Part shown: one piece after another, positions 18,301 to 19,842 of the stretch
How the letters are laid out: each line of letters opens with the position of its first letter
Numbering within the stretch: position 1 is the first letter of the stretch
Assembly (NCBI GenBank): GCA_905178155.1
Contig: CAJINV010000003.1
Coordinates: 4,437,863 to 4,501,862, forward strand
DNA length: 64,000 nt
From: Amoebophrya sp. A120
Taxonomy: Eukaryota > Protista > Dinoflagellata
Direction: 5' to 3'
Made by a program: the position numbers and the translations under genes
The notes under the pieces: generated by a model
The model's database searches: none
What the model was told of the DNA's origin: nothing
The model's input: the letters and a program-made list of their open reading frames with translations, nothing else

Positions 18301-19842
18301 GTCGACCTCTACGTCACTCTTTCCCTGCCCACGACTGGAAACCTGCTCTTGGAGGTCGCCCTCACACAGCTCGCTGGTGACCTTCTTGTAGCAAAGGAAT
18401 TCACCCTTTTCCACCACGAAGAACTTGTTTGCATTCGTAAAGTCCTTCTCTTGAATGACGACCGTGCCCTTCTGTACGTCGCCCATCTTGTACGCCACCT
18501 GGGCCAGGGATTCCACCTGCGAACGCGTCACAATCCCCATCAGAGCCTCGTTTCGCTCGATTCCCTGCACGATCGCGGCTTGCTCAGTCTCCGAAGCGAA
18601 GATCTTGTTCACCTGGTCGCGGGTTTTTTTTTGATCATGAATGCGGAGTAGATGCAGGAGATTTCTTTCAACTACTCTTTTGCACCAGAATTATTAGCGC
18701 CAGAGTCACTTTCACTGACCTGAGTGGTGGTTGCTCGAAGTCTCCTGCTAGCACTTGCTGTACCTGATTTCCCACCACGGAAGTTTCCGACACACCTTCC
18801 TCCAGATCCTCACCGACCACGGCCTGGCGGCGGGGCAGGTGGACGGCTCGGTCCAATCCCAGGGCCTGGAAGGTGCTGCGCGTGATGGACAGCAAGGACA
18901 ACGCAGTTCCGCTGGTCCTCACAGTTGCGTTCCGGATGTGTCCGGTGGAATCGCTCTGCAGAGAGGCCTCGCCGAAGTAGTCGCCCCCCTTCAGCGTGGC
19001 GACGTGCAGGCCATTCTTCATCACCTCGGCCTCTCCGCGGCGGATCAGGAAAAATTCATCGCCGGTGGTGCCCTCCGTAATGATGGTCTGGCGGCAGTCG
19101 GGATCGCTGGACGCCGGGTATTCCCGCTGCGTCAGGGCAGACACCAACCGTGGCAATTCGCTCGCCGGCAGCCGGGCAAACAACGGAACACGCTTCAGAA
19201 ATTCCAGATTCTGCGTGAACGTGCATCAAATGTAAAAATGTCTGGGTCTGGAAACTTGTGATGCTGAGTGGCGTAGCATAAGGAGGCCACAAGTGCTGGC
19301 TCAGCATGACAAATATCTGAGCTTGTAGGTGTTGCCTATTCTGCATGACAAACTGCGTCTCCGCATGACAGAAAAAAACGTCTCTTGGGCAATGTGCATG
19401 ACAGATTTAAGAGTCATGCCAGACAAGCATGACAAACATTCATTCTTCCAGACCCAGACATTTTTACATTTGATAACGTGCGGTCTCGCACAATGTCCTT
19501 CCGCGCTTCGTCCTTGTTCAACGGCCGCATATGGATTGTAAAAGTGTCTGGGTCTGGAAGGTTGGAACTTGTAATGCTAACTTTCCATACCTAGAAAATC
19601 TGTATTGCGTAACCAACAAAAGTCGCAGCCTCTTTTGTCATGCAAAAACGCAGTTTCTCATGCGGATTGCCTATGAGAAAGCGTTTCGGGAAGTTGTCAT
19701 GCCGGACTGCATTCGGAAGTGTTTTCATCATGCACATTTTAGCATCACAAGTTTCCAGACCCAGACATTTTTGCATTTGATACCGCATCAGGTTCGACAA
19801 TCTGCCGGCGCCGTCGGCACCGCAACACGCCCGGATTGACAT
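15371..19842 (-). CDS. PKG: cGMP-dependent protein kinase (3 cNMP-binding domains plus AGC kinase), multi-exon, interrupted by 3 TIR elements
   Basis: cNMP signatures YFGEASL..RNATV, FGERSL..PRAATV, YFGEQAL..VRNATV; kinase [33 protein letters not shown]-terminal [13 protein letters not shown]. The N-terminus MSIRACCG joins in frame once the elements are removed. Confidence 0.92.
17912..18177 (+). mobile_element. TIR introner/MITE copy 1 (266 bp) in a PKG exon; orientation A (arbitrarily +)
   Basis: TATGCATAGCAAAAATGTCTGGCTCTGGAAG ... CTTCCAGACCCAGACATTTTTGCATTTGATA, flanked by GTGCC/GCGCC. Removal with one TSD gives LWVIDR(H/R)DFRRVL; can be written as a GC-AG intron. Confidence 0.92.
19224..19475 (-). 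mobile_element. TIR introner/MITE copy 2 (252 bp) in a PKG exon; orientation B
   Basis: Perfect TIR ATCAAATGTAAAAATGTCTGGGTCTGGAA; TSD ACGTG at 19219-19223 and 19476-19480. Removal restores [22 protein letters not shown]. Confidence 0.95.
19530..19782 (+). mobile_element. TIR introner/MITE copy 3 (253 bp) in a PKG exon; orientation A
   Basis: TATGGATTGTAAAAGTGTCTGGGTCTGGAA ... TTCCAGACCCAGACATTTTTGCATTTGATA; perfect TSD CCGCA. Removal restores [16 protein letters not shown]. Confidence 0.95.

Follow-up and report, generated by a model that had tools for sequence, protein, structure and literature searches.

Introners of Amoebophrya sp. A120 inserted in both orientations and the constraints they place on their removal

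Known introner systems and the elements of the window

Introners of Amoebophrya sp. A120 were described by Farhat et al. 2021 (PMC7789003), the accessible text of which gives inverted repeats (IR) that begin with TAT and continue with seven looser bases and three or more A, direct repeats of 3-5 nt, and a length of about 240 nt. The same text reports non-canonical ends, proposes that hairpins join the exon ends, leaves the intron borders as unknown, and states that no putative transposase was found in A120, while the accessible part of PMC12130899 attributes some A120 introners to transposons with terminal inverted repeats (TIRs). U1 was not detected in A120, with U2, U4, U5, U6 and most spliceosomal proteins being present (PMC7789003, accessible text). 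According to the accessible part of bioRxiv 10.1101/2020.10.14.339549, the introners of Polarella glacialis and Aureococcus anophagefferens are likewise derived from DNA transposons, carry duplications and form introns in either orientation, but they use conventional GT/GC/GA donors and AG acceptors, which come from the element or from a constrained duplication, and their simple classes are biased to one orientation. The nonconventional introns of Euglena, as presented in the accessible parts of PMC12501133 and PMC11282704, are alike in having TIRs, direct repeats at the junctions, no GT-AG ends, and a proposed MITE origin and hairpin-guided removal. They differ in that they have a conserved boundary code of their own, are supported by experiments and yield circular products; the word "orientation" does not occur in these parts of the two Euglena texts.

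The window, that is, the whole 64,000-nt stretch of DNA analysed, contains seven copies of an element of ~260 nt with ~30-nt TIRs and 5-nt duplications (Table 1). The window copies carry the published A120 inverted-repeat motif, with CAT instead of TAT at one end of copy 2, and their 5-nt duplications lie within the published range of direct repeats. The elements fit the description of 2021 and are therefore already known, the element itself being no different from the published introners; the first-pass annotation of this DNA had missed that the elements, like the hairpin idea, were already in print. Our analysis adds three unreported features, namely a 50:50 orientation, a fixed 5-nt duplication of which the upstream copy is kept, and a micro-exon that is kept against equilibrium folding. 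No Amoebophrya statement on orientation, the kept duplication or micro-exon retention was found in the accessible parts of PMC7789003 with its supplement text, PMC12130899, PMC9860276 and PMC11282704. The four uses of "orientation" in the accessible text of PMC7789003 and the hits in its supplement all concern gene orientation. The window copies thus represent a real, known element with unreported, testable constraints on its mechanism. The family is a repeated one, with seven copies in the window, 130 in 150 related loci, and 21,308 contigs of one sequencing run that match a 12-kb stretch.

Table 1. Introner copies and associated features of the window
Feature	Position (length)	Strand or orientation	Details
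Host gene of copies 1-3	15371-19842	-	P0001, 847 aa, cGMP-dependent-kinase-like
Introner copy 1	17912-18177 (266 nt)	+	duplication with one mismatch; net removal 271 nt
Introner copy 2	19224-19475 (252 nt)	interior core on -	duplication 19219-19223 and 19476-19480; net removal 257 nt
Micro-exon	19476-19529 (54 nt with two duplication copies counted; net 49 nt)	-	codes for P0001 residues ~20-36
Introner copy 3	19530-19782 (253 nt)	interior core on +	duplication 19525-19529 and 19783-19787; net removal 258 nt
Introner copy 4	21238-21503 (266 nt)	-	duplication with one mismatch
Introner copy 5	23812-24201 (390 nt with internal insert)	-	net removal 395 nt
Introner copy 6	63385-63653 (269 nt)	+	within a minus-strand acyltransferase-like gene; frame restored when removed with 5 nt
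Introner copy 7	63770-64000 (cut by window end)	+	downstream exon alone checkable

Pairwise comparison of the interiors, with the TIRs stripped, revealed that copies 1, 3, 6 and 7 face one way and copies 2, 4 and 5 the other, as first annotated, with all 21 comparisons in agreement. The best orientation scored 54-208 and the wrong orientation 22-46, the shuffled means being about 19-22 (SD 3-4), and among all copies stripped of their TIRs no interior resembled its own reverse complement as well as its same-way relatives. With one mismatch at most, the first of the two core motifs named in the first-pass annotation was present in all seven copies, while the second was present in six and absent from copy 2. 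The annotated placement of the host genes on the minus strand holds for copies 1-6, including the gene of copy 4, whose product is P0003, and those of copies 5 and 6; for copy 7, the downstream exon alone can be checked. P0001 consists of three cNMP-binding domains and a protein kinase domain, and the window exons are identical, at or near 100%, to proteins labelled Amoebophrya sp. A120 (P0001, P0003). The 5-nt duplications are exact in four of the six complete copies. Stop codons occur in all three coding-strand frames of copies 1, 2, 4 and 5, and in at least two frames of copies 3 and 6. Ordinary GT-AG introns are found in the same genes as the introners.

Several further features were observed in this region. 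Two introns of the kinase gene (17141-17307 and 15470-15695) have no introner TIR and do not look like GT-AG introns at the boundaries of the P0001 model. Copy 5 contains about 125 extra nucleotides with an A-run at about 23850-23965, which are delimited by a stretch of the copy's own sequence that is repeated. The host gene of this copy (23150-25782) matches a Major Vault Protein repeat weakly, with a score under the Pfam cut-off. No Rfam match was found for positions 17800-24300. Two matches of the TIR core to viral contigs were rejected as chance hits that lack the element.

Orientation, reading frame and splice-site signals among related copies

A TIR search of one assembly in a metagenome collection, in which one exon is 99% identical to an A120-labelled protein, yielded 150 loci of about 500 estimated. 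Because one end of each hit had to be an exact TIR, the search favours well-preserved copies and inflates TIR conservation, but it is blind to orientation. The 150 loci hold 130 complete elements, with an exact 5-nt duplication in 109 and one mismatch in 10. The coding strand was called from the flanks alone by a codon model with gene-wise cross-validation, and this classifier was correct for 114 of 130 windows at 20 codons and for 101 of 102 at 40 codons. Twelve of the 130 elements were dropped for a duplication with more than one mismatch or an unclear core, 48 of the remaining 118 for non-coding-like flanks, and 4 fell below the margin. The orientation count that had been proposed as a check shows no bias: the two orientations relative to the gene were represented 36:34 among the 70 copies with coding-like flanks, 33:33 among the 66 strand-called copies at a stricter margin, and 30:29 at a further one. 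Among the 44 copies whose flanks each scored as coding, independently and on a single strand, removal of the element and 5 nt left the flanks in phase in 21 of 22 copies of each orientation class, one third being expected by chance. These counts bear out the annotated claim that removal is independent of orientation. With regard to possible selection on duplication identity, the median nearest-neighbour identity was 0.90 in a small sample.

Introns in both orientations are shared with Polarella and Aureococcus, though without the bias of their simple classes, whereas the conventional donor and AG acceptor of those introners are mostly missing here. Ends of exactly the required length that read GT/GC/GA-AG or AT-AC are possible in 9 of the 48 copies of known strand, and GT-AG in only 3. 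Every position of the duplication is occupied by all four bases across copies, with no base bias, so it is unconstrained, in contrast to that of the Polarella and Aureococcus elements. These results agree with the annotated view that directional spliceosomal signals are not what is read. Ordinary spliceosomal sites co-opted from the TIR ends and the duplication, the route documented for either-orientation introners in the accessible part of bioRxiv 2020.10.14.339549, would be in keeping with the in-frame GT-AG pairs that lie near the ends of 20 of the 48 copies. Nevertheless, the rarity of exact-length canonical ends and the unbiased duplication stand against this explanation, as do the window copies themselves: none of copies 2-6 has a canonical option, and the GC-AG option of copy 1 goes unused, its codon differing from P0001 and from the RNA-like contig described below. 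We consider the co-option of ordinary sites largely refuted and scarcely credible.

Removal from transcripts, the micro-exon and the kept duplication

Four sequencing runs were compared with the stretch, among them the RNA-like X3 (it lacks ordinary introns, and its assignment to RNA is a guess) and the DNA-like X1. The unique exons of the stretch had no coverage in X9 and X10, two of the three raw-read RNA runs. Copies 1-3 and 5 are gone from the product, as judged from the coordinates, lengths and depths of two RNA-like contigs of X3 and from the public protein model, and copy 4 is gone from the public protein model P0003. These protein models were built from assembled cDNA and thus do not constitute evidence independent of the RNA-like contigs. 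The joints listed were 15 of 481, with none for copies 1-5, so lengths were used instead. At 3089, the full length of the RNA-like kinase contig is that of the P0001 model and its UTRs together, and a 364-nt gap in an X3 contig corresponds to the removal of copy 5 and exactly 5 nt, this copy being removed to the base despite its internal insert.

Copies 2 and 3 flank the micro-exon in opposite orientations, as the first-pass annotation had stated; its exon of ~50 nt proved to be a gap of 54 nt with two duplication copies inside, of which 49 nt form the net exon. Because of this net length, skipping of the micro-exon would shift the reading frame. Over copies 2 and 3, the RNA-like contig lacks 515 nt, which is the sum of 257 and 258, and retains the micro-exon. 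This value was derived from an X3 contig that has 188 nt past position 19217 and whose end is set at 19920 ±1 by the depth of the next bin, assuming that two contigs alone cover that bin and that there is no unaligned tail. The observed bin depth of 4.72 equals the 4.72 predicted for inclusion, with 6.8 predicted for skipping, and the P0001 protein model includes the micro-exon peptide. Copies of both orientations are thus removed from one transcript, and the micro-exon between them is kept. Skipping of the micro-exon through pairing of the outer TIRs, as had been suggested, is not supported as the main product by the contig arithmetic and the P0001 peptide. Nine more close element pairs (L003, L004, L007, L010, L014, L027, L031, L044 and L068) surround exons of 35-167 nt net, and the lengths of four of these nine exons are not a multiple of three. 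Tandem copies such as those at 19224-19782 are natural reporters for the order of removal.

Two further observations concern the same runs. In X9, about 55-70 raw reads at 19444-19580 join one element end to a foreign flank and cover no exon, reflecting either a copy retained at another expressed locus or another strain. In X3, a depth spike of 431 over the kinase exon at 16203-16603 is probably a kinase transcript from another organism or a paralogue.

Sites with a mismatched duplication reveal which of its two copies is kept. At all three such sites (copies 1 and 4 and, in the related locus L027, the second element), which include both element orientations, the transcript-upstream duplication is kept; polarity therefore concerns three sites and would arise 1 in 8 by chance. 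Copy 1 keeps 18178-18182, and a piece of the RNA-like contig begins at 18178 and shows no other letters; for copy 4, the public protein P0003 keeps 21504-21508. In L027, the kept base supplies a glycine that all 82 aligned homologues share, evidence that is independent of cDNA, and the micro-exon residues are conserved in 79-81 of the 82 homologues, a comparison in which reverse transcription plays no part. According to copies 1 and 4, the 5' cut falls at the TIR or one base ahead of it.

The junctions might instead be template switches of reverse transcriptase across a hairpin with direct repeats, the real junctions in the cell being different or imprecise. Direct repeats cause such artefacts (PMC13149111, accessible part), and the expression evidence is all cDNA-based. 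Against this stand the stop codons within the elements, the flanks, whose phase in 42 of 44 copies fits no removal other than element+5 modulo 3, and the micro-exon and junction residues of L027, conserved in 79-82 of 82 homologues. Taken together, the stops, the phase and the L027 conservation indicate that removal must be real in the cell, and we regard template switching as highly improbable, though it could still distort the picture of which duplication copy is kept. Removal most likely takes place at the RNA level and during transcription, and we hold it very probable that it is both RNA-level and orientation-blind.

Ciliate IESs are transposon-like inserts that are lost precisely, together with one copy of a short direct repeat, and they are removed from DNA in the somatic nucleus and kept in the germline nucleus. 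Similar excision from DNA at some life stage had been proposed for the present elements in the first-pass annotation. The loss of the element and one duplication is what footprint-free excision by a transposase would be expected to leave, and independence of orientation is natural for DNA ends; in addition, the life stage of the DNA-like run is not given, 15 of 481 joints are listed, and contigs drop rare forms. In contrast to IESs, the DNA-like contigs are filled and the polarity follows the transcript. Among the matches listed, X1 contigs with a unique depth of 43-48 run from flank into TIR at eight of the ten ends of copies 1-5, the other two ends being those beside the micro-exon, and the kept duplication follows the transcript and not the element at all three mismatched sites. 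We know of no separate germline nucleus set aside in Amoebophrya. In the accessible part of PMC3852033, dinospores arise from dividing trophont nuclei and one nuclear lineage is described, so that excised copies could not be restored or passed on. The proposal is not borne out by these data, and DNA-level excision appears very unlikely.

TIR pairing and the candidate machinery

Structure prediction suggested that each element can pair its TIRs on both strands, with 21-30 expected pairs. Across copies 2 and 3, however, the predicted equilibrium ensemble contains 29 outer-outer pairs, 22 inner-inner pairs and no cognate pairs, and the predicted duplex energy over 45 nt is -67 kcal/mol for the outer pair versus -37 and -52 kcal/mol for the cognate ones. 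A transcript cut off after copy 3 is predicted to pair cognately (21 pairs). Six of the nine close pairs are predicted to fold outer/inner on both strands; L027 was set aside in judging the order of folding, since cognate pairing is already its minimum-energy state. An equilibrium stem model thus predicts skipping while the data show inclusion, which implies that commitment occurs during transcription or that cognate ends are checked in another way. Against a strict need for pairing, analysis of TIR covariation revealed that only two of six variable positions pair more often than shuffled ones, and there was no wobble excess in the transcript direction (G-U 43 versus A-C 61). The role of the stem in removal is a putative one.

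Comparison of the two TIRs of each copy at positions 1-10 revealed that the transcript-5' TIR is nearer to the consensus in 31 copies and the 3' TIR in 13 (p 0.01; post hoc, one of seven ranges). The corresponding counts are 17:3 in one orientation class and 14:10 in the other, 14:20 in non-coding controls and 3:3 in the window. This asymmetry in exon-inserted copies agrees in direction with the kept upstream duplication and gives a post hoc hint of directional read-out. The annotated statement that only the symmetric TIRs are read therefore holds insofar as the direction of the interior is irrelevant, but not with respect to the polarity, which is set by the transcript and accompanied by a 5' TIR that tends to be nearer to the consensus.

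Our preferred account, which we consider somewhat probable, is that introners are removed together with one 5-nt duplication from nascent RNA, with TIR pairing guiding a candidate U1-less spliceosome by position and not by GT/AG. The two TIRs would pair once the second is made, the first complete pair would fold, and the folded stem would replace the cross-intron bridging that is normally begun by U1. The 5' cut would fall at the first TIR or one base before it, the 3' cut would lie four to five bases beyond the second TIR, and these positions would leave the upstream duplication in the mRNA. As the pair of TIRs looks identical from either strand, the interior would be a mere loop. Copy 3 would be committed by first-come pairing, or else by its prompt removal, before copy 2 is complete, and skipping of the micro-exon would in this way be prevented.

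We favour this candidate role of the resident U1-less spliceosome over a separate nuclease-ligase route and over a protein read-out with matching of the duplication. In the former, the hairpin would define an RNA segment that is removed by a spliceosome-independent nuclease and a ligase, or by a dedicated second machinery, as proposed for Euglena. The lack of a dinucleotide signal at either end, the blindness to orientation and the failure to find U1 are consistent with such a route, and in the accessible parts of PMC11282704 and PMC12501133 the excision of Euglena TIR introns yields circles, and a machinery of a different kind is suggested. Yet A120 has a nearly full spliceosome, ordinary GT-AG introns lie in the same genes, and the IR/DR layout is also that of 15% of the canonical introns in A120, which suggests one machinery for both; moreover, a tunicate spliceosome is described, in the accessible part of its source, as adapted to non-canonical ends. 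A separate nuclease-ligase route seems rather unlikely to us.

In the latter, proteins would read the TIRs as sequence, end by end, and the matching 5-nt duplication would identify cognate ends through a strand-transfer or exon-alignment check, with the pairing of the stem being incidental. Such read-out would agree with the weak covariation and the lack of wobble excess, with cognate removal despite a stronger predicted outer pair, the outer ends carrying different duplications, and with the excess of copies whose 5' TIR is the nearer to the consensus. On the other hand, copies 1 and 4 and the L027 copy are removed although their duplications are mismatched, one mismatch is present in 10 of the 130 relatives, and the TIR conservation is inflated by the search pattern. 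We judge protein read-out to be quite improbable.

A splicing route that does without splice-site dinucleotides can also be envisaged, in which the terminal hairpin and a fixed 5-nt ruler set both cuts during transcription, on either strand, and the work is done by machinery other than a standard spliceosome. This reading is doubtful but conceivable; if true, such a route would render every exonic insertion of this transposon silent, making each element a self-removing, orientation-free insert. The unbiased orientation, the kept upstream duplication and the kept micro-exon are constraints that narrow down how tens of thousands of non-canonical introns are removed without U1. If they hold genome-wide, no exonic insertion of this transposon family would be visible to the host, and this would account for the spread of the family.

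With respect to a branch site, the inferred 3' cut follows the first A of the terminal ATA at a distance of 7 nt, a spacing that equals that of the fused Giardia motif, within which we presume the position of the branching A. The branch-site idea stays a lead because the bases before this A vary, and more so at the 3' TIR. At 45395-45703 the window also contains an element of a second TIR family, which has the same TAT-N7-AAA start and a different core. This element carries an exact 5-nt duplication, its removal together with 5 nt leaves an open frame on the minus strand, and relatives of it occur in L040 and L044.
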